Positions 42,395 to 54,014 of a stretch of DNA of 64,000 nucleotides are shown piece after piece. Source of the stretch: Puia sp. (GTDB taxonomy: Bacteria > Bacteroidota > Bacteroidia > Chitinophagales > Chitinophagaceae). The first letter of the stretch is position 1. Each line of letters opens with the position of its first letter. The notes beneath the pieces are model-generated. The model was not told where the DNA came from and searched no databases. It saw nothing but the letters and a program-made list of their open reading frames with translations. Both the position numbers and the translations under genes were made by a program. The DNA lies in NCBI GenBank assembly GCA_036500545.1, contig DASYBV010000032.1:45721-109720 (forward strand). Direction: 5' to 3'.

Positions 42395-43045
42395 TTATTC
42401 CGGCACTCCGAAACGCCGGCAGATCTCCGAATAGCTCATCTGCTGAATAGGTTTCACCGAAGCCACCGTGCTTTTGATACCACCGGGGATGATAATATAC
42501 CGGAACTGATGCGCATTGGATATACCCCCATACGCATTCAGGCTGCTGACCAGCCGGATCTTCAGGTTGCCTGCCGTAACAAATGCCGACCAGGTATCGA
42601 TGTTGGAGGCAGATCCATCCAGATAGGTGATGCTGATCGGCAGCAAGGAAACCTGGGCGGACGGCCAGATGACGGGATTGTAACCATCCAGTTTGCCAAA
42701 AGTAAGGACCGTACCGCTATCGACGACTGCCTGGGTGATGTCCGTAGTCGCCTTTGTATAGCTAAATCCATAGATACCAAAAACGGTATCTTTTGTGTAA
42801 GCGGCAGGTGTGAACCAACTGGAGTAGATTACATTGGCGGCGCCTTTCGTACCGGTGGCGCCCGTTGGACCGGCAGGCCCCACAGGTCCCGTTGGACCGG
42901 CATCTCCCTTCTGACAGGATACGATCAGCACGGAGGCAAGTACGATCAGGGATACACGAAGCAAAGCGGCGGCTGTCAGGGATGTCTTGCGATAGAGGGA
43001 ACGATGTGTCTGCATAAAGTTTTGTTTTTTGATCAACAGTTTCAT
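42395..43045 (-). CDS. Lipoprotein with short collagen-like G-X-Y tract and unknown C-terminal domain
   Basis: Lipobox IVSCQKG is followed by GDAGPTGPVGPAGPTGATGTKG. The start may instead be the internal Met at 43015. Confidence 0.55.
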   Translation of the reverse strand: MKLLIKKQNFMQTHRSLYRKTSLTAAALLRVSLIVLASVLIVSCQKGDAGPTGPVGPAGPTGATGTKGAANVIYSSWFTPAAYTKDTVFGIYGFSYTKATTDITQAVVDSGTVLTFGKLDGYNPVIWPSAQVSLLPISITYLDGSASNIDTWSAFVTAGNLKIRLVSSLNAYGGISNAHQFRYIIIPGGIKSTVASVKPIQQMSYSEICRRFGVPE

Positions 43046-43293: not shown

Positions 43294-45732
43294 ATGATCT
43301 CCATCTATCATAAAAATGCCCCAACTGGGCCTGTCCGCCGTATGACCGGGATCTTTTTCCGGTTGGCGCTGTGGCTATTGATCCTGCCGGTCACCGCATC
43401 ATATGCCCAGCCGGTAACTACCGCCGGCGCCCCGGCGCAGCTGGCGATCCGACAGGCGGGGGAACATAGCATCCGCATTACATTGAAACCGCTCAGCTTT
43501 GGGGAGGATTTTCCTTTCAGCCCCGCGCTGGTGCAACGGAGCTATCCCGCTCCAGAGATCCTGCTGACGACGCTATCGGGTGCCGTCAAAAAAAGGGTCG
43601 GACCCATGATGGTGACCGTTAGTCCAGAAGCGTCGGCCATCCGGGTCACGGTGACCACGCTGAAGGGCGAACCCATACAAGAGCTGGTCTTCAACGGGGA
43701 TAATACCTTGTCCTTCGCCCTCCACGACGCCCCGGTCCTGGGGATGGGGGAAGGAGGACATAAACCCGTGCCCGGCGTCAACTGGCGTACACAGCCCATC
43801 GAATTTGACCGGAGAGGCAGGTTGCAGGATATGCAGCCCCGCTGGCAGGGCGATTCGTATGGTTCCCGCAATCCCGTTCCGTTAATGATCGGAACGGACG
43901 GCTGGGCGCTCTTCGTAGCCACACCCTGGGGGCAGGTCGATCTTCAGGCGGCGGACCATGGGACATACATCCCCTGGAAGCCGACGGCGCAGGATACGGC
44001 CCAGCAGAACGAAAAGAACCAGCAATTGGCCCGGGCAAAGGGAGTTCCTCCGGCCAGTTCCGTCATCCCCGGTCTGTATGATCTGATCGTCTTTGACGCA
44101 CATCAGCCGGCCGCCTTTCTGAAAGATCTTTCGGTCCTGAGCGGGCCGGCCGTCATACCGCCCAAATGGGCATTGGGGTATATGCAATCCCATCGTACGA
44201 TAAAGGATGAGACGCAGATCATCGGCATCGTGGACAGTTTCCGTTCGAAGAAGATACCCGTAGATGCCGTTATCTACCTGGGCACTGGTTTTACGCCGAG
44301 AGGGTGGAATACAAAACAGCCCTCTTTTGATTTCAACCCCGAAGTCTTTCACCGGGACCCGGCTGTAGTATTGGCCGACCTTCATGCCCTTCATGTAAAA
44401 GTGGTGGTGCATATGGTACCCCTGGACCGGGATAAGCTTCCTTCGCTGCATGGTTCCATTCCGGCCCGGCCCGGAGAGGTACTGGATGCGGGACATATAC
44501 AGAACTACTGGCAGCTGCACATCCCGCTTATGAAGACCGGCGTCGATGCCTTCTGGCCGGATGAAGGTGATTGGTTCAATTTATTCGAACGGGTGTCACG
44601 CCACCAGCTTTATTACCAGGGGCCGCTGTCTACGTTCCCGGATATCCGCCCCTGGAGCCTTCACCGCAACGGATACCTGGGGATCGCCCAATGGGGCGGC
44701 TGGGTATGGTCCGGCGATACCGAGTCCTCCTGGAAAACGCTCGAAGGGCAGGTAGCCGTGGGTATCAACTATTCGCTTAGCATCAGCCCTTACTGGGGAT
44801 CGGATATAGGCGGCTTCTACCCGAGTAACGAAAAGACGGGAGAGCTTTATGCACGTTGGTTCCAGTTCGGGGCTTTCTGCCCCTCCTTCCGTTCGCATGG
44901 GCGTACCACCAATAGTATCCTGCCCTGGGGCTGGGGACTCAGCGACCGCGGGGATTTAGAGACCGGCCGCTCCAATTCGGATAGCATCCTCGCCCTGCGG
45001 AATGTACCGGTCTCGGCAATGAACAATCCTGCGATAGAGCCCGTCGTCAAAAAATATGATGAGCTGCGGTACCAGCTATTACCTTATAACTATACATTGG
45101 CCTGGGAAGCGCGACAGACCGGTATGCCCCTGATGCGGGCCCTCTGGCTCCATTATCCCGGCGATGAAAAAGCCCGTGGCATGGGCAGCGAATACCTGTG
45201 GGGCCGCGACCTGCTGATCGCGCCCGTCTTTGAGAAAGGAGCCACAGCCCGGGAAGTATACCTGCCAAAAGGCAGCTGGTATGATTGGTGGAGCAGTCCT
45301 GCCGGCGGCGGAGCCGGCGCCGTCCCCATTACCGGGGGTGTTACCATCCGCCGCGCCGTCGATCTCTCTATCATGCCCATCTATGTACGCGCCGGCGCCA
45401 TCATTCCTTTCGACCCCATCCGTCAATATACTGCCGAACCGGTAAAAGGGCCAACGACCCTTCGGATCTATCCGGGAGCAGACGGAGATTTTACCCTGTA
45501 TGAAGATGACGGCATCAGCCTGCAATATCTCCGGGGCAAAGACACGCGGATCCACCTGAGCTGGAACGATAAGACGCGGACGTTGACCCTTCGCCCGGGC
45601 GCCCCGGACGGCGATTCTGCCGGCGATACCGCCGGCCTGCCGGTGCAGCAGACCTTTGCCGTCGAGCGGATGACGGACAGAACGATCAAAACGGTGAAGT
45701 ATGAAGGGAAGGAGGTGACGGTTCGTTTTTGA
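43294..45732 (+). CDS. Glycoside hydrolase family 31 (alpha-glucosidase/alpha-xylosidase type)
   Basis: 812-aa ORF with PKWALGYMQSHRT, KKIPVDAVIYLG, GVDAFWPDEGDWF, WSGDTESSW and FGAFCPSFRSHG. The start may be the Met at 43342. Confidence 0.8.
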   Translation: MISIYHKNAPTGPVRRMTGIFFRLALWLLILPVTASYAQPVTTAGAPAQLAIRQAGEHSIRITLKPLSFGEDFPFSPALVQRSYPAPEILLTTLSGAVKKRVGPMMVTVSPEASAIRVTVTTLKGEPIQELVFNGDNTLSFALHDAPVLGMGEGGHKPVPGVNWRTQPIEFDRRGRLQDMQPRWQGDSYGSRNPVPLMIGTDGWALFVATPWGQVDLQAADHGTYIPWKPTAQDTAQQNEKNQQLARAKGVPPASSVIPGLYDLIVFDAHQPAAFLKDLSVLSGPAVIPPKWALGYMQSHRTIKDETQIIGIVDSFRSKKIPVDAVIYLGTGFTPRGWNTKQPSFDFNPEVFHRDPAVVLADLHALHVKVVVHMVPLDRDKLPSLHGSIPARPGEVLDAGHIQNYWQLHIPLMKTGVDAFWPDEGDWFNLFERVSRHQLYYQGPLSTFPDIRPWSLHRNGYLGIAQWGGWVWSGDTESSWKTLEGQVAVGINYSLSISPYWGSDIGGFYPSNEKTGELYARWFQFGAFCPSFRSHGRTTNSILPWGWGLSDRGDLETGRSNSDSILALRNVPVSAMNNPAIEPVVKKYDELRYQLLPYNYTLAWEARQTGMPLMRALWLHYPGDEKARGMGSEYLWGRDLLIAPVFEKGATAREVYLPKGSWYDWWSSPAGGGAGAVPITGGVTIRRAVDLSIMPIYVRAGAIIPFDPIRQYTAEPVKGPTTLRIYPGADGDFTLYEDDGISLQYLRGKDTRIHLSWNDKTRTLTLRPGAPDGDSAGDTAGLPVQQTFAVERMTDRTIKTVKYEGKEVTVRF

Positions 45733-45737
45733 GCGCC

Positions 45738-46577
45738 TTACATATAATCCCCGATCCGGAAACAACTGATGCCTTCCACTTCCTTGTAAGAGTCCGTAGA
45801 ATATATTTCATCGACAAAATCGATCGAAGGGCCTTTGCTGAAAATACCGTGACTGACGATCAGGTTGACTTTTCGCGCCCCTTTTTCTTTTAGCATTTTT
45901 GCTGTCCCGGCAAACGTACCGCCACCGTCACATATATCGTCCACGATAAAACAGGTCTGATCGTTCAGATCGGTCGTCAGCGTCTTAAAATTTGTAAGCG
46001 CTCCGGTCCTTACATCCCTTTCCTTCATACACTCTACCACTTGTTCCATTTGCAGGAATTGCGCCAGCTGGTGTATCTTTTTTAAGGCACCGGCATCGGG
46101 AGAAACCAGGCAAGAGGATTCTCCGGGATGTTTGCGGGAGTAATCGTCCAGTGAATCTTTTACGAATCGGTGATTGGATACGGCATAGGACCTATCTATC
46201 AACGCGGTTGACACTTCCGAATGGGGATCGAATATTTTCACTTTCTTAAAACCCGCCTGGTTTAAAATAGCGGCTACTACCTTCAGGGAGAAAGGTTCTC
46301 CGTCCAGCATGACCCGGTCCATGCGGGCAGTCATAAGATAGGAAATATGTAATTCGATATGCGCAAAATCAAGATACTCCAGCGTATTTTTTACAAAGAG
46401 GGCCATCAGTAGGTCATTGGCATTGTTTACACGGGTAAAGATCCGCAACGGCTCTTTCTTATTTTTTGTTTCTGCATGTCCTGCATCGATCTTGATATGG
46501 GGCTGTCCGTCCGGAAAGACCATGGATTTGAACAGGATGTCCGACTTCTCCGGGTAAATTAGATTAAAGGTTGTCAT
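45738..46577 (-). CDS. Short ribose-phosphate pyrophosphokinase (Prs)-like protein; last gene of the NAD operon
   Basis: 279-aa ORF with VFPDGQPHIKI, KIFDPHSEV, VSPDAGALKK and CFIVDDICDGGGTF (PRPP-loop type). It is shorter and more divergent than housekeeping Prs. Confidence 0.7.
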   Translation of the reverse strand: MTTFNLIYPEKSDILFKSMVFPDGQPHIKIDAGHAETKNKKEPLRIFTRVNNANDLLMALFVKNTLEYLDFAHIELHISYLMTARMDRVMLDGEPFSLKVVAAILNQAGFKKVKIFDPHSEVSTALIDRSYAVSNHRFVKDSLDDYSRKHPGESSCLVSPDAGALKKIHQLAQFLQMEQVVECMKERDVRTGALTNFKTLTTDLNDQTCFIVDDICDGGGTFAGTAKMLKEKGARKVNLIVSHGIFSKGPSIDFVDEIYSTDSYKEVEGISCFRIGDYM

Positions 46578-46588
46578 GATTACTGCTT

Positions 46589-47320
46589 TTATTTATTTCT
46601 TCCTTTTTCGCCGGGATATAACTGCGCAACGCCGTCGCTCTGCCGGAACTCATTTGTCGCGATATCCAGGGCGGAGATCTTTCCCTGGAATGCTGCTCCG
46701 GTATCGATATTCCAGACATTGCAACGTTGCATCGGGGTTTCTATATCATAATTTGTAGTAGGAGTATGACCAATATAGATCTCCTTATATAACAAGAGCC
46801 TTTGGGGATAGAATATACTATCCTGGGGTATTCGTCTATCCACCGCCAGCGCCATCTCCCACAGGGTCCTGTCCCAGAAGTAATTGCTTGCATGATGTTC
46901 TCTTGCAGGCCCATGCATAGAAGAAAAACCGGCATGGATAAAAAGACGCCCGGCTCCATCCTCATAATAGGGACGCATCCGGTAAAAAAAAGCAAGATGC
47001 GCCTCTTTCTGTTCCGGGGTGATCCCCTTATAGCTGTCGACGGTAGCCTGACCGCCATGAAATAACCAATCCGGATCTTCTCCATAGCCTCCCAACCATT
47101 CTTCACACCAGGCGTCGTGGTTGCCGCGGATAAAAATACAGGCATGACTTTCTTCCAGTTCCATCAGGTATTCGATCACCTGTCTCGACTGTGACCACCC
47201 ATCCACATAATCGCCGAGAAAGATCAGTCGATCGTTCTTTTTCGGACTGATCTTGTCGATCAGTTGCCGGAGGGCTTTTTCAGCGCCGTGTATATCTCCT
47301 ATGACATAGGTCTTTGCCAT
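46589..47320 (-). CDS. PPP-family metallophosphoesterase (ApaH/PrpE/lambda-phosphatase-like)
   Basis: 243-aa ORF with VIGDIHG, LIFLGDYVDGW, IRGNHD and LFIHAG...YIGHTP. Confidence 0.75.
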   Translation of the reverse strand: MAKTYVIGDIHGAEKALRQLIDKISPKKNDRLIFLGDYVDGWSQSRQVIEYLMELEESHACIFIRGNHDAWCEEWLGGYGEDPDWLFHGGQATVDSYKGITPEQKEAHLAFFYRMRPYYEDGAGRLFIHAGFSSMHGPAREHHASNYFWDRTLWEMALAVDRRIPQDSIFYPQRLLLYKEIYIGHTPTTNYDIETPMQRCNVWNIDTGAAFQGKISALDIATNEFRQSDGVAQLYPGEKGRNK

Positions 47321-47376
47321 TATAAATTAAGTTTTGCGTTGAGCCGGTCGCATAAATGCTCAATATCGTCCTTTCT

Positions 47377-47919
47377 TTAAAAATCAATATAATCCGCAGG
47401 CACATGGTCGGTTAGCCAGACCCCATTCGCAGAAAGATAAAACAGGAACCCATCCTTCTTCATCTCCGCGCTTCTGACAACCAATATAACGGCAGTCCCC
47501 CGTCTATTTCCTACCCTTTCCGCCGTTTCTTTATCCTGGCTGAGGTGAACATGCTGCCTGCTCATTTTCTTCAGCCCTCCCAAACAAATATCGGTCAAAA
47601 ACCTATCAACAGTCCCATGATATAGCAGATCCGGGGGTTCTTTTGCATCCAGTTGCAATTCAACTTCGATAGAATGCCCCTGGTTAGCTCTTATTTTGGT
47701 TCCGTCATTATTGAATGAAAATCGCTGTTTATCATTTGAAACAACTACTTCCTTCAAATCCTGGCTGGAAAAAGACCGCCCGTTGCCCGCGGATTTGGAA
47801 ATAAGTTCATTCACATCTGCCCAACCATTTTCATCAAGGCGAAGACCGATCGCTGCAGGATCATGCCGCAGAACCAAGCTTAAAAATTTACTGGTCTTAG
47901 TTTTTTCTTTCTCATTCAT
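47377..47919 (-). CDS. kptA: RNA 2'-phosphotransferase Tpt1/KptA
   Basis: It has SKFLSLVLRHDP, DENGWADVNELI, IRANQGHS, LYHGT and RQHVHLS. The start was chosen at MNEKEK (47919), which overlaps the upstream stop as ATGAATGA. Confidence 0.85.
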   Translation of the reverse strand: MNEKEKTKTSKFLSLVLRHDPAAIGLRLDENGWADVNELISKSAGNGRSFSSQDLKEVVVSNDKQRFSFNNDGTKIRANQGHSIEVELQLDAKEPPDLLYHGTVDRFLTDICLGGLKKMSRQHVHLSQDKETAERVGNRRGTAVILVVRSAEMKKDGFLFYLSANGVWLTDHVPADYIDF

Positions 47920-48331
47920 TTTCTCTGAATTTTTGTAGTAACTCCGCCATTCCTCCATTCTCCGGGAGTCTAAATTCTCCTCCAAAAAATACTTTTACGA
48001 CATCAATCTGTCCGACAATATTTCTATTGAACTCATCCAATTCCTCCGCAGGCACCCATAATTCATTATGGATATCGCCTCCTACATTCTGAACGATGAA
48101 TTTCGAATAATGTGTCTCCAGGAGATCGAATGCCGTAACAATACCACAGTAGCCGGATGACGGATCTTTCGTATTCCATTGGTCTGCGATCTGTTCGGCA
48201 TAAAGCTGATTCAGCACAGGATAAAATATAGGTTGCCATTCCAGCCTGGGAGGGAACAACAACCAGGCAGACGCCATAATCAGCTCAAGCTCTTTGATGC
48301 CAACAGGTCTATATAATTTTACTGTCTTCAT
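47912..48331 (-). CDS. Conserved-looking 139-aa protein of unknown function
   Basis: ORF with KLYRPVGIKELELI, FPPRLEWQPIFYPVLNQLYAEQIADQWN and ELWVPAEELDEFN. It is wedged between the Nampt-like gene and kptA. I cannot assign a family. Confidence 0.6.
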   Translation of the reverse strand: MKTVKLYRPVGIKELELIMASAWLLFPPRLEWQPIFYPVLNQLYAEQIADQWNTKDPSSGYCGIVTAFDLLETHYSKFIVQNVGGDIHNELWVPAEELDEFNRNIVGQIDVVKVFFGGEFRLPENGGMAELLQKFRENE

Positions 48332-48343
48332 TTCACACTAATT

Positions 48344-49819
48344 TTATAAATTCGCCTTCAACCGTTCCCTGATCTCGGCGAGACTGCAATCAATCATCAG
48401 TTTCCCATCCTTAAAAACCGTTCGTAGCTCCCCCTGCCCTTCTTCTTCCCAGGTACATTGATCTTTCAACGCCAGTTTACCGGTGGCCGGGTTGCGATAG
48501 ACCTGCATCAACCCTTTAGCGGATTTCTTCGTTCCATCGTCCGTCTTTGGATCTTTGAAGATATCACGACCTATTCCATTTACTTCTCCATATGTGGCCT
48601 TCATGGCAAATCCAAACGTATCACGGGTCACGTATTCATAGGTGTAGGAACCGATGCCCAGGACAACATTATAGCTGGCAAATCCTTTTGCCTTCAACCC
48701 TTCCAGTATCGCCGACTGGCGCTCCGTTGTAATACTATCGCCATATATCAAACCGACATGGCTGTCCAACAGTTTATACCCCTTTTTCGTGACCGTACCG
48801 CCAAAGGTTTCCCAGAGGCATTCGATGGCGCCTTTGTACGCTGGGCTTCCCTTGGGGGCAGCCATATCACCTATAATGATCTTTACCGGGTCACCGCTGT
48901 CGGGTCGGATCACCACCTTGCCTTCCCGGGCGAGGATCTTCGCTTTCAATGACGGTAAAATTTCCGTAATGACCTGCCAGAAATCCCAGGTGTCGCTGAC
49001 GATCGATACGATGCCAGCAGGATAGACTTCAGATACCAGGCGTTCAAATGTCTTAACCTCTCCATCCTGGGTACCCATACACATTACGCTATGCTCCGTG
49101 GCGGGTACGGATCCTCCGATCAGTTCTTTCTCACAGTCAGCACGATAATATTGTTCCAGGAAATCGATGGCTGGAATTGTATCGGTGCCGGAAAAAGACA
49201 ACAGATGGCCGGCCCCGCTCATTACCGCATCTTCGATACCACTCATGCCCCGGAAGGAGAAATCATGTCCCTGCCAGGGGATAAAACTCAGGTCCTCTCC
49301 TACTGTCTCCTTTGCAAAGCGGGTAAAGGTCCGCAGGTATTCAAAGGCGCTGGTGGCCGAGGTGGAAGGCTTCCAAAGAATGGCACTCAATACCGTTTCC
49401 AGCATGTTCGTTAGCCAGAAAAAAGCCGGCAAGGTGTTTTTGATCGTGAAAATCGGCACACGCATCGGCACCAGGCTGCCTTCCGGAAGGGCCTTGATCT
49501 CCAAGGGCAGATACCCCAGATCGTGTAATTCCGCAATGTGCTGGTAGGTAATGCTATCCTTACCCAGGTAATTGTCCATTCGTCTTGCATACTCCCTGAC
49601 AACCTCGTCCTTGGGTCGTTGGAAAAACTCTTCATTGAATTGCCGGATCAGGTATTCTTTGATAAAATATTGCAGGCCAAAAAATACGATCTCGTCTACC
49701 GCCTCACTCCTGGATTTTCTTGGCGTAAGGTTGGAATAGACCATGGTGGTTCCGGCCGGGTACTGAAATTTATGGCCTACTTTATAACCGTCTTTTAATA
49801 AGATGGGTGATACTTTCAT
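48344..49819 (-). CDS. nadV: Nicotinamide phosphoribosyltransferase (NadV/Nampt)-like
   Basis: 491-aa ORF with ILLKDGYKVGHKFQYPAGTTMVYSNLTPR, GHDFSFRGMSG, SIVSDTWDFW and IRPDSGDP. Confidence 0.8.
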   Translation of the reverse strand: MKVSPILLKDGYKVGHKFQYPAGTTMVYSNLTPRKSRSEAVDEIVFFGLQYFIKEYLIRQFNEEFFQRPKDEVVREYARRMDNYLGKDSITYQHIAELHDLGYLPLEIKALPEGSLVPMRVPIFTIKNTLPAFFWLTNMLETVLSAILWKPSTSATSAFEYLRTFTRFAKETVGEDLSFIPWQGHDFSFRGMSGIEDAVMSGAGHLLSFSGTDTIPAIDFLEQYYRADCEKELIGGSVPATEHSVMCMGTQDGEVKTFERLVSEVYPAGIVSIVSDTWDFWQVITEILPSLKAKILAREGKVVIRPDSGDPVKIIIGDMAAPKGSPAYKGAIECLWETFGGTVTKKGYKLLDSHVGLIYGDSITTERQSAILEGLKAKGFASYNVVLGIGSYTYEYVTRDTFGFAMKATYGEVNGIGRDIFKDPKTDDGTKKSAKGLMQVYRNPATGKLALKDQCTWEEEGQGELRTVFKDGKLMIDCSLAEIRERLKANL

Positions 49820-50502
49820 GATAAAGTGATGTTAAGCTGAAAATTATTTTGTTTCAATTTCTTGTTGAATCTATATAGCTCGGGGTGCCGGTTCTGCAAT
49901 CCCTCCCGTTTTGTGCCTGTATTAATGATATATTCCGAGGCAAGGATCTTCCTCCTGAAGTTTCGCCTGTCTAATGGTATATCCAGGATACATTCGTATA
50001 ATTCATGTAGCTCCGTTATCGTAAACAGTTCATCCAGCAGCTCAAAACCAACTGGGAAATACAGGATCTTTGATTGCAGACGCTGTAGGGCCCGTTTAAA
50101 TATGATCCGGTGATCAAACCCGAGAGTCGGCATTTTCCTGATATTGAACCATTGCACATCATTGGCCATGGTACCGGCGGAGATTTCAAATTTTCGTGGA
50201 TTGACCAATGCATAATAGGTAACCGATATAGCCCTGCCACGCGGGTCCCTCTCCGGCTCATCAAAGGAATATAGCTGCTCCAGAAATAGCTGGTCCATCC
50301 CCAGCTTGGTACGCAATACTCGTGAACAGGTATCCGAAAAACGCTCTTCCATCTGCAAAAAAGCACCCGGTAAGGTCCAGCCATCCTTAAACGGCTCCTC
50401 CTTCCTGTTTAACAGCAATACAGAAAGTTCATTTGCCTGATACCCAAATACCACCAGGTCAATGGCCAGTGCCGGATTCTGATAAGAATGGAAAAGTTTC
50501 AT
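49816..50502 (-). CDS. nrtR: NrtR-type regulator (non-catalytic Nudix domain plus C-terminal winged helix)
   Basis: The Nudix-box region GAFLQMEERFSDTCSRVLRTKLG lacks the catalytic REUXEE glutamates. The C-terminus has ITELHELYECILDIPLDRRNFRRKI. The start was chosen at MKLFHSY (50502). Its stop overlaps the nadV start as ATGA. Confidence 0.7.
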   Translation of the reverse strand: MKLFHSYQNPALAIDLVVFGYQANELSVLLLNRKEEPFKDGWTLPGAFLQMEERFSDTCSRVLRTKLGMDQLFLEQLYSFDEPERDPRGRAISVTYYALVNPRKFEISAGTMANDVQWFNIRKMPTLGFDHRIIFKRALQRLQSKILYFPVGFELLDELFTITELHELYECILDIPLDRRNFRRKILASEYIINTGTKREGLQNRHPELYRFNKKLKQNNFQLNITLS

Positions 50503-50506
50503 TTTC

Positions 50507-50529
50507 GTTTGCGTTAATCTGACGCAAAC
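50507..50529. promoter_or_regulatory. Perfect 8-bp-arm palindrome GTTTGCGT-n7-ACGCAAAC; candidate NrtR operator
   Basis: Read directly from the sequence. It ends 4 nt upstream of the nrtR ATG and overlaps a TTAGTTTG near -7 box on the minus strand. Confidence 0.4.
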
Positions 50530-50596
50530 TAAGTGCATTTTTTTTACATAGAGAAATTTTTGTCCGTTTTTCTTGAAAATCAAGAATTCCGGGATT

Positions 50597-51190
50597 TCAC
50601 GGCCTCAGCCATCCCATCGCAAAGGAGGTCCCGACACCCAGCACGGCGCCGGCGGTGACATCGGTGGGATAATGTACCCCCAGGTACATACGGGAATACC
50701 CGACGGAGGCAGCCCAGAGAAAGGAGGGTGCGATCACATACCATTTTGGATACGCGCGCGAAAGAGCGGTGACCGCGCTGAAAGAAGAAGAGGTATGACC
50801 CGAGGGGAACGAATACTCCATCGGACGGTATACCGGCACCAGCCGCAGGTCCGTGAGAAAGGGCCGGGGACGCTTCACCAATTTTTTTATAAACAGGTTC
50901 AGAAGATAGGTGGTAGCCGTGCTGGTCGCGATGTAGAGGGCGTTCTGCCGGGTCTGCCGGTCGTTCCCGATGATCCCGTCCAGCAGTACGCCTGCGGGTA
51001 TGGCTATGTTTACATAATTATTTGCATTGGAGACCGACCTCCATAATCTTGTCTGCCCATCCGTCCTGCCGGCGGCAAGCCCTTCGAGGATATGCTCATC
51101 CAGCCGTTGCAGGGAAGATTGTGCGGAGAGCCCGGCCGGTAAGAAGGACAGTCCTGTCAGGACGGCAATGACAATAATTGCTGATCTCAT
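50597..51190 (-). CDS. PAP2 family phosphatase (membrane/periplasmic)
   Basis: 197-aa ORF with KKLVKRPRPF, FPSGHTSSSF and SRMYLGVHYPTDV, the complete canonical PAP2 motif set. Confidence 0.85.
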   Translation of the reverse strand: MRSAIIVIAVLTGLSFLPAGLSAQSSLQRLDEHILEGLAAGRTDGQTRLWRSVSNANNYVNIAIPAGVLLDGIIGNDRQTRQNALYIATSTATTYLLNLFIKKLVKRPRPFLTDLRLVPVYRPMEYSFPSGHTSSSFSAVTALSRAYPKWYVIAPSFLWAASVGYSRMYLGVHYPTDVTAGAVLGVGTSFAMGWLRP

Positions 51191-51224
51191 ATTTTTCCGG
51201 GAAGAAAGATAGGAAAAATACAGG

Positions 51225-51560
51225 TTACATCTTTATCATCTTTGTCGGATGGCTGAGTTTGTAATCCGACGAACTTTGATCGATGCCGATCTTCCGGTTG
51301 ACATATCCTTTTTTATATTTTTTTACCCGCGCTTCGAATTGGATCCTGTCCCCTTCTTTCAGCGGGCCCAGTTTTTCGAATCCTTTCGTGAGATTGAACC
51401 ATAGATGGTCGGTAATAGGAGTGCCCTCGTTATCCCGGATGTTTATTAGCAGCAAGGTATCGGTGGAGGGTCCCCGGTAATTGGATTTGCTCCCATACTT
51501 TTTGAACAGACCCGTAAATACGTCCCGCTGCTCCTCCAGCTTTCTTAATTCCTTGCGCAT
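51225..51560 (-). CDS. Hypothetical 111-aa protein
   Basis: AT-rich ORF MRKELRKLEEQRDVFTG...GDRIQFEARVKKYKKGY. No family recognised. Confidence 0.4.
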   Translation of the reverse strand: MRKELRKLEEQRDVFTGLFKKYGSKSNYRGPSTDTLLLINIRDNEGTPITDHLWFNLTKGFEKLGPLKEGDRIQFEARVKKYKKGYVNRKIGIDQSSSDYKLSHPTKMIKM

Positions 51561-51692
51561 GGGTTGAAAATAATCCTATTTCGGCAAATTGGTAAATGGA
51601 CATTTATAGCCAGGGGCGATTTTTATGAAGAAGTCAACTTTCAACCTCATGATGCCTTTGCATATTCTGCTTTTTTTATAAAAAGAATTCAT

Positions 51693-51700
51693 TAACTTTG
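51693..51700 (+). promoter_or_regulatory. Bacteroidota -7 promoter box TAACTTTG
   Basis: Exact TAnnTTTG match in the 366-bp AT-rich spacer upstream of ppk1. It lies 4 nt before a 54-codon ORF. Confidence 0.3.
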
Positions 51701-51926
51701 GTATATGCCGCCGACAAAGAAAAAAAATATCAGAAAAGCCGGGAAAAGATCCGGCTTGACTACCTCCAATGTAGTTATTGTCAACCATACAGTCGTACCG
51801 GCAAAGGAAACTTCGAAGCTTAAAAAAATCAATGAAATGCTTCGCAATGCTAAATTGCAGCATAGCTAAAAAGTCTTTCTCCTTACCTTTTCTTTTTCCC
51901 TTCCGGAGTATTACACCTGCCACGAA

Positions 51927-54014
51927 ATGGCCAAAAAAAGCTATTTTGCAAGTATGCCTGACTATTCCTTTTCCGATAGAGACCTGAGTTGGCTATCCTT
52001 CAATTTCAGGGTACTGGAAGAAGCTGCCCGGGAAGAGACCCCTTTGTTGGAGAAGGTCCGTTTTCTGTCCATCTACTGCTCCAACCTGGACGAATTCTAC
52101 CGCGTACGTATCCCGGCCCTTGCCGCCCTGCAAAAGATCAAAAAGGCAAAAGGCAGCCACGTTTTACCGGAAGGAGGATCGTCTTTGTTCCTCTTATCGG
52201 AGATCGCGGCCGAGGTCCATTCCCAGCTGGAATATTTTGGCCGGTTGTTTACCGGGAGCATCCTGCCTGCCCTTTCGGCGCAGGATATCCGCTTTATTTA
52301 TCACGAGCCGCTGCCCGAAGCGGTAAAAAAAGAGGCCCGGGCCTGCTTCTTTACCCAGCTGCTCGCCTTTCTGCAACCGATCGGGCTTTCCAAAGCGGGG
52401 AAAGGTTTTTTCCCAGAAAACGATAAGCTGTATTTTTTACTGGTCCTCGATAAAAACACCGCCGCACACGATATAGATGCCGAAGAGGAAGAGATCGTCC
52501 TCCTGAACATTCCATCGGACAGTCTTCCCCGCTTTATACGGGTGGAGGCAGGAACGACCCAATACATCCTCTTTATCGACGACATCATACGGGATAACCT
52601 GGGGTTTATTTTTCCCGGTGTTACCGTCAGGGGCGCCTACAGCTTTAAAATAACCCGCGATGCGGAGCTGGACCTGGAAGATGAATACGAAGGGGACCTG
52701 GCGGAGAAGATCGAAAAGAAGCTGGCCAAACGCGATGCGGGATTAGCTACCCGTCTGCTTTATGAACCGGGTATCCCGCTGCGGGTCCTGGAAACGCTGA
52801 TCCGCAAACTAAGCCTGGATGCGGCGTATGTCGTCGAAGGCGGCCGTTATCATAATTTGAGGGACCTGGCCGATTTCCCGGTGAAGAACCCGGCCCTGTC
52901 CTATACTCCCTGGCCGCCCTTCCAACGCGATCACGACAAGGCGCAAAGCCTGCTCCAGGAGGTCACCAAAAAAGATATGCTCCTGCATACCCCCTATGAA
53001 AGCTATGATCCCGTTCTACAATTCTTCAATGAAGCCTCCATCGACCCTGCCGTAGAAGAGATCTGGCTCACCATGTACCGGGTGGCAAAGGATTCCCTGA
53101 TCGGGCATGCCCTGATCAGCGCCGCACGCAACGGGAAAAAAGTGACGGTGTTCGTGGAACTGAAGGCCCGTTTTGACGAAGCCAATAACCTTCGGTGGGC
53201 CCGGAAGATGAAGGCGGCGGGTGTCCGGATCATCTATAGCATCCCGGCACTGAAAGTACATGCCAAAATAGCCCTTGTAAAAAGAAGGATCGATCAGCGG
53301 GTCCGGTATTCCGGTCTGCTGGCGACGGGTAACCTGAATGAGAATACAGCTCGTTACTATACGGATCATATTCTGCTGACGGGTCAGCACGACCTGATGC
53401 GGGAGCTGGAATTGTTGTTCATATTCCTCAGCCGCCGTAAGGACCCCCGCGGATCGGAGACCATCGATTTCCATCACCTGCTGGTGGCGCAATTCAATTT
53501 GCAGCAACGTCTCCTTTCCCTGATCGACAGGGAGATCGCAAACGCCCGCCAGGGGTTGCCCGCCTCCGTCATCATCAAGGTGAACAACCTGGAAGAACCC
53601 GTGCTGATCCGAAAATTATACGACGCATCGGAGGCGGGGGTAAAGGTCCAGCTGATCGTACGGAGTATCTGCTGCTGTATTCCCGGCGTCAGCGGAATGA
53701 GCGAACATATTACCGTACAAAGGATCGTCGATCGTTACCTCGAACATGGCAGGGTGTTTATCTTTCACAACAATGGCAACGAAGAGATCTTCCTGGGTTC
53801 GGCAGACTGGATGAACCGCAATATTTACCGGCGGATCGAGGTCTGTTTTCCACTGTACGACGAAGCATTGAAAGAAGAGATCAGAAACATTATCCGTCTG
53901 CAGCTGGCAGATGCGGGAGAATATCTCCCGACAACCCACGCGGAAGGTGGGCAACCCTCTTTCCGCTCCCAGGCGGCGATCTATCAATACCTGGCCGGTC
54001 GCCGGTCTTCGTAG
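51927..54014 (+). CDS. ppk1: Polyphosphate kinase 1
   Basis: 695-aa ORF with RDLSWLSFNFRVLEEA, NLDEFYRVR, VFVELKARFDE and KVHAKIALV (PLD-type HKD), plus a second HKD-like region. Confidence 0.92.
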   Translation: MAKKSYFASMPDYSFSDRDLSWLSFNFRVLEEAAREETPLLEKVRFLSIYCSNLDEFYRVRIPALAALQKIKKAKGSHVLPEGGSSLFLLSEIAAEVHSQLEYFGRLFTGSILPALSAQDIRFIYHEPLPEAVKKEARACFFTQLLAFLQPIGLSKAGKGFFPENDKLYFLLVLDKNTAAHDIDAEEEEIVLLNIPSDSLPRFIRVEAGTTQYILFIDDIIRDNLGFIFPGVTVRGAYSFKITRDAELDLEDEYEGDLAEKIEKKLAKRDAGLATRLLYEPGIPLRVLETLIRKLSLDAAYVVEGGRYHNLRDLADFPVKNPALSYTPWPPFQRDHDKAQSLLQEVTKKDMLLHTPYESYDPVLQFFNEASIDPAVEEIWLTMYRVAKDSLIGHALISAARNGKKVTVFVELKARFDEANNLRWARKMKAAGVRIIYSIPALKVHAKIALVKRRIDQRVRYSGLLATGNLNENTARYYTDHILLTGQHDLMRELELLFIFLSRRKDPRGSETIDFHHLLVAQFNLQQRLLSLIDREIANARQGLPASVIIKVNNLEEPVLIRKLYDASEAGVKVQLIVRSICCCIPGVSGMSEHITVQRIVDRYLEHGRVFIFHNNGNEEIFLGSADWMNRNIYRRIEVCFPLYDEALKEEIRNIIRLQLADAGEYLPTTHAEGGQPSFRSQAAIYQYLAGRRSS

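Follow-up and report, generated by a model that had tools for sequence, protein, structure and literature searches.

A 64,000-nucleotide stretch of the metagenome-assembled genome of a soil bacterium, Puia sp. (Chitinophagaceae), referred to in its entirety as the window, carries a tightly packed cluster of six open reading frames (ORFs) that all face the same way on the minus strand, in the order nrtR, namat, p139, kptA, phosphoesterase and adps. On balance, the cluster probably represents a chromosomal NARP1 operon repressed by NrtR, in which three genes of the NAD+/ADP-ribose (ADPR) network lie between namat and adps, and which would provide an ADPR-inducible recycling of KptA by-products into NAD+. 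This reading draws on gene content, family signatures, conservation of the operator, and synteny. The original prediction, made from the letters of the sequence, had described the six minus-strand genes with their overlaps and gaps, and on re-reading the ORF list and the sequence all of these were exact. The genes nrtR and namat share an ATGA overlap (49816-49819), 12 nt separate namat from p139, the stop of p139 overlaps the start of kptA by 8 nt (ATGAATGA, 47912-47919), and the phosphoesterase gene and adps are 11 nt apart; the 56 nt between kptA and the phosphoesterase gene (47321-47376) form the sole sizeable intergenic gap. The families assigned to the five named genes, and the lack of one for the 139-aa product of p139, agree with Pfam and NCBIfam. 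A terminator separating kptA and the phosphoesterase gene from the nadV/prs-like pair would speak for split transcription, and a pattern scan of the operon found no convincing one (2 weak candidates, against 5.7 in shuffled sequence).

In the NARP1 pathway, which is described chiefly in phages, Adps pyrophosphorylates ADPR with ATP, and Namat joins the resulting ADPR pyrophosphate (ADPR-PP) to nicotinamide, giving NAD+ (bioRxiv 10.1101/2024.02.11.579819). Namat is recognizable by a clamp helix of the form GS-X-Phi-X-Phi-X-Phi-TRD, with aromatic X, and by a stacking Arg in the beta1-beta2 loop, which is Arg40 in the SpbetaL1 enzyme (PMC12774641). The product of the second gene (48344-49819, minus strand; Pfam NAMPT_N and NAPRTase), first described as Nampt-like, carries the clamp motif GSYTYEYVTRD, has Arg37 at the place of Arg40 in the SpbetaL1 enzyme, and scores 591 bits against the Namat crystal structures 9W5X/9W5W, compared to 264 bits against human NAMPT. 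Among homologues in related clusters, all 49 of 49 contain the motif GS[YF]T[YF][QE][YF][NVK]TRD. Adps, for its part, resembles PRPS in fold, but its PP loop and catalytic hairpin are remodelled and the C-terminal regulatory module is lost (PMC13586617). The last gene of the cluster (45738-46577, minus strand; Pribosyltran), first described as Prs-like, encodes a protein with 34-40% identity to the Adps proteins of ICP1 and Av-05, which were taken as references from phage records (that of ICP1 is structurally characterised), but only 20-23% to E. coli Prs and a Chitinophaga Prs. It matches phage 'Prs' genes adjoining Namat with 160 bits and 43% identity, and canonical Prs structures with ~60 bits, the PDB set compared having no Adps entry. 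Its PP loop reads DDICDGGGTF, where Prs has DD[MI]IDT.GTL, and the pattern DDICDG..F is common to ICP1 and Av-05 Adps. The same two proteins share with it a K.RDV.TG hairpin that is 2 aa longer than in Prs, and truncated ends, shorter than those of Prs by ~14 aa (N-terminus) and ~25 aa (C-terminus). Equivalents of Lys185, Asp212/213, His121 and Arg87 are kept. The adps and namat genes lie 1.8 kb apart in one operon and are directly adjacent in many relatives. Pfam and NCBIfam detect no NMN (nicotinamide mononucleotide) adenylyltransferase domain in the operon, though classical NadV salvage would need such an enzyme.

By these published signatures, the pair appears to be Namat and Adps, i.e. 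NARP1, rather than an ordinary NadV and Prs, and from that assignment it would follow that NAD+ is rebuilt from ADPR and nicotinamide. The salvage function originally proposed is retained as far as the resynthesis of NAD+ from nicotinamide is concerned, while its route through Nampt and Prs, from phosphoribosyl pyrophosphate (PRPP) to NMN, gives way in the face of the Namat clamp motif and the Adps features. ADPR as a precursor of NAD+ would match an ADPR-sensing repressor, and the regulatory loop would then be closed more tightly than first suggested.

The repressor gene, nrtR (49816-50502, minus strand), encodes an N-terminal Nudix-like domain (NUDIX, PF00293) and a C-terminal winged helix (NrtR_WHD, PF21906, 2.4e-22). 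Its score of 148.6 bits against NCBIfam NF050029 lies under the equivalog cut-off of 400 and marks it as a member of the family, not an equivalog of the protein modelled there. The Nudix box, GAFLQMEERFSDTCSRVLRTKLG, has lost the catalytic glutamates of the REUxEE motif. The longest ORF extends to 50583, but homologues in related loci are 227-229 aa long, and the start is for this reason most likely the ATG at 50502, giving a protein of 228 aa. With this start, a 21-bp putative operator resembling an NrtR box, TTTGCGTCAGATTAACGCAAA (50508-50528, minus strand), sits immediately 5' of the start codon, within an extended inverted repeat at 50504-50532. A perfect palindrome over the promoter had been noted earlier; the inverted repeat is real, but it is interrupted, with the arms GTTTGCGT and ACGCAAAC matching perfectly (8/8) around 7 nt, or alternatively with 11-nt arms matching at 91%. 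The box has a single zero-mismatch occurrence in the window, where a search allowing 3 mismatches gives no second NrtR box in excess of chance. Conservation of the box immediately ahead of nrtR extends to related loci of Chitinophagaceae type (L002-L018, L065 and L079), and in two of them, L012 and L065, both arms have changed together to TTTGTGT...ACACAAA, compensatory changes of the pattern expected of a protein-binding site.

The left arm of the operator is overlapped by TAGTTTG (50525-50531), a -7-like element of the form TA-n-TTTG, with TTTC (50553-50556) 21 nt upstream. In aligned upstream regions, relatives have TTTG ~20 nt upstream of the -7-like element, at the position of the window's TTTC. 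The element pair (50525-50556, minus strand) is thus a putative promoter, likely of the Bacteroidota -7/-33 type; a sigma-70 promoter scan was also run, its consensus being uninformative for Bacteroidota promoters. An Rfam scan of positions 45000-52000 returned no element, and hence no NAD+ riboswitch. ADPR is the effector of NrtR and frees it from DNA (Rodionov et al. 2008, PMC2330246), and by analogy the repressor of the present operon is predicted to respond to ADPR. As a separate observation, the gap between kptA and the phosphoesterase gene holds ACGCAAAA, equal to one NrtR-box half-site, with TTTATGCGA upstream of it; this may be a degenerate second NrtR site or a chance match.

The kptA gene (47377-47919, minus strand) encodes a full-length PTS_2-RNA domain (PF01885, 3.8e-52, 177 bits) that also exceeds the cut-off of NF002014 (264 bits, cut-off 239). 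Its product is ~60% identical (193 bits) to Tpt1 of Runella slithyformis (7KW8), an enzyme of demonstrated biochemical activity (PMC6097658), and keeps the Arg-His-Arg-Arg tetrad: the motifs LRH, IRANQGHS and SRQHVHL align with Arg16/His17/Arg64/Arg119 of the Runella protein. Of 63 cluster homologues, 56 have the tetrad motifs in full. The next gene (46589-47320, minus strand) specifies a binuclear metallophosphoesterase (Pfam Metallophos, 9.3e-17) with partial NCBIfam matches to bacterial Pnkp, PrpE and ApaH. All four metal motifs (GDxHG/GDxxD/GNHD/GHT) are present, as GDIHG, GDYVDG, GNHD and GHT, and they recur in 49 of 52 cluster homologues. The best PDB matches are the Pnkp phosphatase domain of C. 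thermocellum (4J6O, 2e-7) and lambda phosphatase (1G5B), so that by its motifs and matches the enzyme is of the lambda-phosphatase/Pnkp-phosphatase (PPP) type. In Pnkp, this module depends on Mn2+ and works as a phosphodiesterase and monoesterase on 2',3'-cyclic phosphate ends (PMC3675462). Both calls had been made in the original prediction, together with a link of the two enzymes to NAD+ resynthesis; the profile scores, the tetrad and the resemblance to a validated Tpt1 uphold the first, the metal motifs and the PDB matches uphold the second, and the link is supported as well.

The protein p139 (47912-48331, minus strand) belongs to no Pfam or NCBIfam family, as the original prediction had it, and can now be given some character. 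It is 100% identical to a protein of the Puia sp. source, and has more than 8000 close homologues, with 53-77% identity across orders and 51 invariant columns in an alignment of 25 sequences. An AlphaFold2 model (pLDDT 95) finds its best Foldseek matches, all weak (TM-score 0.35-0.53, E ~0.02), among ADP-ribosyltransferase (ART) folds: the RhsP2 toxin (TM-score 0.51-0.53), TreTu, Tpt1, CC0527 and pertussis S1; matches in the viral structure library BFVD are ART folds too, and similarly weak. The invariant residues R8, S59 and H88-x-E90, read from the alignment and the model, occupy the strand positions expected of an R-S-E triad and are candidates for it. A profile comparison with KptA (hhalign) gave no relationship (probability 0.2%). 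An exhaustive profile search places the domain in 2419 clusters at 50% identity, and members occur as fusions with domains of the microbial PARG, ARH, Macro, Nudix, GDSL esterase and GNAT families. From the modelled fold and these fusions, p139 is probably an unnamed domain of the ADPR/NAD+ network with an ART-like fold. Fusions of p139 to PARG (a microbial-type macrodomain, in Chryseobacterium and others) or to ADP-ribosylglycohydrolase occur at 8001-9233 in L053, L056, L057, L066, L067, L071 and L072, and also at L011:472-1770 and L058:8001-9314. Such fusions are probably the reason for the misleading database name 'ADP-ribosylation/crystallin J1'. A phage origin of p139 was considered and rejected, the protein being found in only three huge uncultured phage records.

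A survey of gene neighbourhoods was made across 80 species-representative Bacteroidota loci, which were found through p139, making co-occurrence within them conditional on that gene rather than unbiased. The loci were annotated by BLAST with the window proteins and with reference proteins of relatives, and a family was counted when a member lay within +/-8 kb. Of the families of the window, NrtR is found in 65 loci, KptA in 62, Adps in 52, the phosphoesterase in 51 and Namat in 45; those added by relatives include NADAR (53 loci), ARH (41), DUF4291 (38) and a TARG1/SCO6735-like macrodomain (31). The full set of six window genes is present in 28 of the 80. Gene order is shuffled among lineages, and the most conserved gene pair consists of kptA with the phosphoesterase gene directly downstream (31 of the 48 loci that have both). 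A MacroD-type macrodomain gene often follows p139, and p139 adjoins NADAR in ~20 of the 80 loci. The nearest relatives of the window cluster, L007 and L033, have a macrodomain as their only extra gene. The six genes of the window are thus the minimal form of a larger and variable Bacteroidota cluster, which recurs in dozens of species and does not reflect chance adjacency. The conserved linkage and the conserved operator give substance to the earlier suggestion of a single module under an NrtR-type operator.

Two details of the survey may be recorded here. The DUF4291 gene, frequent in the cluster, often stands next to p139 or KptA (e.g. L003:5364-6023, L043:8958-9614). Locus L008 (QFQQ01000006.1), labelled Citrobacter freundii, has SusC/SusD-type genes together with the Bacteroidota cluster, and L055, labelled Bifidobacterium, has the same cluster; both bins are apparently taxonomically mislabelled.

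A related arrangement is found in a lineage of large phages represented by IMG/VR viral contigs, where one block contains genes for Adps-like, Nampt/Namat-like, HAD-like (157 aa), KptA, macrodomain-like, NADAR and NadE-like proteins (L110-L131, L139, L150-L162 and L169; e.g. L110:5979-13832). The block is present in 28 of 80 KptA-bearing viral contigs, these 28 probably belonging to one clade, and its Namat-like protein has the motif GAFCFSAV...VTRD, unlike the clean Namat signature. Judged by gene content, the linkage of KptA to NARP1-like genes recurs independently in phages.

The cycle that we infer for the operon, including its effector and the co-transcription of the six genes, would run as follows. 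NrtR would occupy the 21-bp operator overlapping the promoter until released by free ADPR. KptA would spend NAD+ to strip a 2'-phosphate, yielding nicotinamide and ADPR 1'',2''-cyclic phosphate. Its substrate could be an RNA 2'-phosphate or a 2'-phospho-adenylate (NADP(H), or 2'-phospho-ADPR from NADP+ cleavage), and the two are held to be equally plausible because Tpt1 enzymes also remove the 2'-phosphate of NADP(H) and 2',5'-ADP, and the Runella Tpt1 binds NADP+ (PMC10622864). The phosphoesterase would open the cyclic phosphate and remove it, leaving ADPR; alternatively or additionally, it may turn 2',3'-cyclic ends into 2'-phosphate ends. Adps would convert ADPR and ATP to ADPR-PP, and Namat would combine ADPR-PP with nicotinamide to regenerate NAD+, so that the net cost of the cycle would be ATP and not NAD+. 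The p139 protein, translationally coupled to KptA, may contribute a second NAD+/ADPR-handling activity. In phage NARP1 operons, accessory enzymes likewise supply linear ADPR, namely Adpp (bioRxiv 10.64898/2026.01.28.702374) and RyDEP (10.64898/2026.05.28.727677). A wider form of the proposal, which we offer tentatively, is that Bacteroidota possess a self-regenerating, ADPR-inducible NAD+ cycle made up of KptA, a dedicated phosphoesterase and a housekeeping NARP1. Bacterial Tpt1/KptA would find its physiological setting in this cycle, and p139 would be a new and widespread family of minimal NAD+-dependent transferases that act together with KptA.

Several points weigh against this account. In yeast, ADPR 1'',2''-cyclic phosphate is handled by a 2H phosphodiesterase and a macrodomain, and the window operon has no macrodomain by Pfam, though many related loci have one. 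The phosphoesterase resembles the C. thermocellum Pnkp and lambda phosphatases only distantly (E 2e-7). KptA turnover would be stoichiometric with its substrate, and the resulting loss of NAD+ may not be large enough to warrant dedicated recycling. Namat retains PRPP-dependent NMN synthesis in vitro, so that some classical salvage may occur, and the account gives p139 no definite role. The many ADP-ribosyl hydrolases of relatives suit detoxification equally well, and the co-occurrence itself was measured in loci chosen through p139.

The strongest rival, which overlaps with the recycling account and differs in the source of ADPR, is a damage-response or immunity module. Here the operon would allow survival of NADase or ART attack, whether by interbacterial toxins or by the cell's own abortive-infection systems: NARP1 would refill NAD+, the hydrolases would free proteins and nucleic acids of ADPR, and phosphate-linked ADPR adducts would be cleaned up by KptA, the phosphoesterase and p139. 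Relatives do add NADAR, ARH, MacroD-type and TARG1/SCO6735-type macrodomains and the PARG fusion, and families of these kinds reverse toxin-made ADP-ribosylation of DNA and RNA (PMC11833690; PMC11125620). Countering NAD+ depletion is the demonstrated role of NARP1, NADases produce ADPR, the effector of NrtR, and a variable, shuffled gene content is typical of conflict systems. However, the minimal version in the window has none of these hydrolases, yet keeps KptA, the phosphoesterase and p139; KptA and probably p139 have folds of the writer (ART) type, not those of erasers; the 53-77% identity of p139 across orders looks like that of a housekeeping protein; and the flanks are ordinary metabolic genes rather than a defence island. 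We regard a primary role in damage response or immunity as possible but less likely than recycling.

A cassette for healing RNA ends is a less probable explanation, and we consider it unlikely. The phosphoesterase would make a 2'-phosphate from RNA 2',3'-cyclic ends (or remove it), KptA would clear the 2'-phosphate, and the NAD+ supply would be co-regulated. This would accord with the closest structural relatives of the phosphoesterase, which are RNA end-healing enzymes (4J6O; PMC3675462), with KptA and the phosphoesterase as the most conserved pair, with Tpt1 as a proven RNA 2'-phosphotransferase, and with the assignment of KptA to RNA repair in work from the Aravind laboratory. Among the families screened in the clusters, however, there is no ligase, kinase or other RNA gene, and a 2021 review says the same of KptA in NAD+/ADPr operons (PMC8120803). 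The Runella Tpt1 belongs to a different cluster, one with a ligase, and a bacterial source of internal RNA 2'-phosphate is not known in these taxa.

Classical nicotinamide salvage, in which Prs would supply PRPP, NadV would make NMN, an NMN adenylyltransferase would be encoded elsewhere and the middle genes would be passengers, is very improbable: it is the reading suggested by the database names (PRK09198, 604 bits, for Namat; ribP_PPkin, 120 bits, for Adps), by the roughly half of Nampt's PRPP activity that Namat keeps in vitro and by the interpretation of such operons in Rodionov 2008 (PMC2330246), but the Namat clamp signature and the Adps-specific features are present, a Prs test of purified phage Adps yielded no measurable product, from which its authors concluded that it is not a Prs, and the middle genes are conserved partners. 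Equally hard to credit is a signalling system in which KptA would make ADPR 1'',2''-cyclic phosphate from NADP(H) as a messenger, the phosphoesterase would degrade it and NrtR or another sensor would read it, for although Shuman and colleagues proposed this compound as a possible signal (PMC10622864), and signalling systems often place a synthase beside a phosphoesterase, the cluster shows no evident gene for an effector or a receptor, and recycling explains the pairing with NARP1 better.

Set beside known systems, the recycling operon shares its two NARP1 enzymes (by signature), their presence in one operon and the predicted reaction with phage NARP1 (Osterman et al., bioRxiv 10.1101/2024.02.11.579819) and with that of Paenibacillus foliorum (PMC12774641). 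It differs in being chromosomal and in an ordinary metabolic setting, in having three genes inserted between the pair, and in being headed by an ADPR-responsive repressor, as predicted. Both of these papers describe the physiological role of NARP1 in bacteria as an open question. NARP1-AP, with the Macro-domain ADPR-1''-phosphate phosphatase Adpp, and RyDEP-NARP1 likewise combine NARP1 with accessory enzymes that deliver linear ADPR. Here, by contrast, the accessory proteins are KptA, a metallophosphoesterase and a probably ART-like protein in a regulated operon of a bacterial host, and KptA would produce an ADPR derivative rather than only consume one.

The NrtR-regulated prs-nadV operons described in 2008 (PMC2330246), among which Cytophaga hutchinsonii and Acinetobacter are listed, have the same regulator, a palindromic operator of the 21-bp type and a prs-like/nadV-like pair; they are three-gene operons, interpreted at the time as PRPP/NMN salvage, whereas KptA, the phosphoesterase and p139 are inserted in the present operon. 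The prs-nadV-nrtR genes of Acinetobacter baumannii (L170:2599-5816) carry Adps and Namat signatures (DDICDGGATF and GSFTYNYLTRD), and a Persicobacter plasmid (L171:6306-9470) has a bare NrtR-Adps-Namat set. In the GenBank notes on ICP1, the nearest relatives given for its two genes are Flavobacterium johnsoniae Prs and Shewanella oneidensis NadV. Going by these signatures, the operons of 2008 were most likely NARP1, which would account for the presence of a dedicated Prs paralogue, a puzzle to their authors (PMC2330246).

The yeast route, in which Tpt1 is followed by Cpd1 (a 2H phosphodiesterase) and Poa1 (a macrodomain), likewise leads stepwise from ADPR 1'',2''-cyclic phosphate to ADPR. In the proposed bacterial counterpart, hydrolysis would fall to an unrelated binuclear metallophosphoesterase, with macrodomains in relatives. 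We know of no direct step from ADPR to NAD+ in yeast.

A further comparison concerns YarT, a small myxobacterial ART toxin encoded beside YbiA/NADAR (PMC11125620). Compared by description, p139 is likewise small, single-domain, probably ART-like and often adjacent to NADAR, and it also weakly resembles the C-terminal ART toxins of Rhs proteins. It differs from YarT in being highly conserved and in a candidate triad that is R-S-E-like rather than H-Y-E. Its conservation, and the lack of NADAR in the window, argue against an unneutralised toxin.

Much of the background is therefore established: NARP1 itself (2024), its activity in bacteria (2026), NARP1 with an associated phosphatase (2026), the NrtR-prs-nadV operons (2008), and KptA in NAD+/ADPr operons. 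As to the last, a review citing Aravind-lab analyses places bacterial KptA in operons of NAD+/ADPr metabolism with sirtuins, macrodomains, ARHs and NADAR, and without RNA-repair genes, while its accessible part does not identify NARP1 chemistry, an NrtR operator, the KptA-phosphoesterase pairing or the p139 family (PMC8120803). The original prediction had known of no experimentally described system of precisely this composition. That statement needs qualifying for KptA in NAD+/ADPr operons in general, as the same review makes clear. None of the papers listed by a literature search combined NARP1 with Tpt1 or KptA; NrtR with NARP1 was found as general background only. What is new is the NARP1 chemistry predicted inside a KptA cluster, the operator, the KptA-phosphoesterase pairing, the character of p139, and the hypothesis of a closed loop.

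The genes flanking the cluster are of ordinary metabolic type (GH31, aldo-keto reductase, MFS transporter, two-component systems, PAP2, polyphosphate kinase), and show no prophage or defence-island signal. The GC content of the cluster is 0.465, i.e. 7 points lower than in the remainder of the window (0.538). The low-GC stretch, at 46000-52000 (~0.46-0.47 vs ~0.54), runs beyond the operon, across a PAP2 gene (50597-51190) and a family-less ORF of 111 aa (51225-51560), and may reflect horizontal acquisition. In 64 related loci the GC content of the cluster is not systematically offset, and a mobile-element or defence-island origin was rejected for this reason and in view of the ordinary flanks, though the window's own cluster is 7 points low. 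Elsewhere in the window, the ORF at 42395-43045 (minus strand) is lipoprotein-like, belongs to no Pfam family and contains a collagen-like GPTGPVGPAGPTGATG repeat.

The operon touches on two open questions, namely the role of Tpt1/KptA in bacteria lacking a source of RNA 2'-phosphate, and the reason why NARP1 is encoded outside prophages in certain bacteria (Osterman 2024; Lan 2026). Shuman's group reported in 2023 that there was no evidence of Tpt1 expression answering physiological cues (PMC10622864). By placing KptA and NARP1 under one operator that is predicted to respond to ADPR, the operon gives both a testable context. The p139 family, with its 2419 clusters, is a candidate for a new ADPR enzyme, and the closed NAD+ cycle suggested here could be reconstituted with five small soluble proteins.

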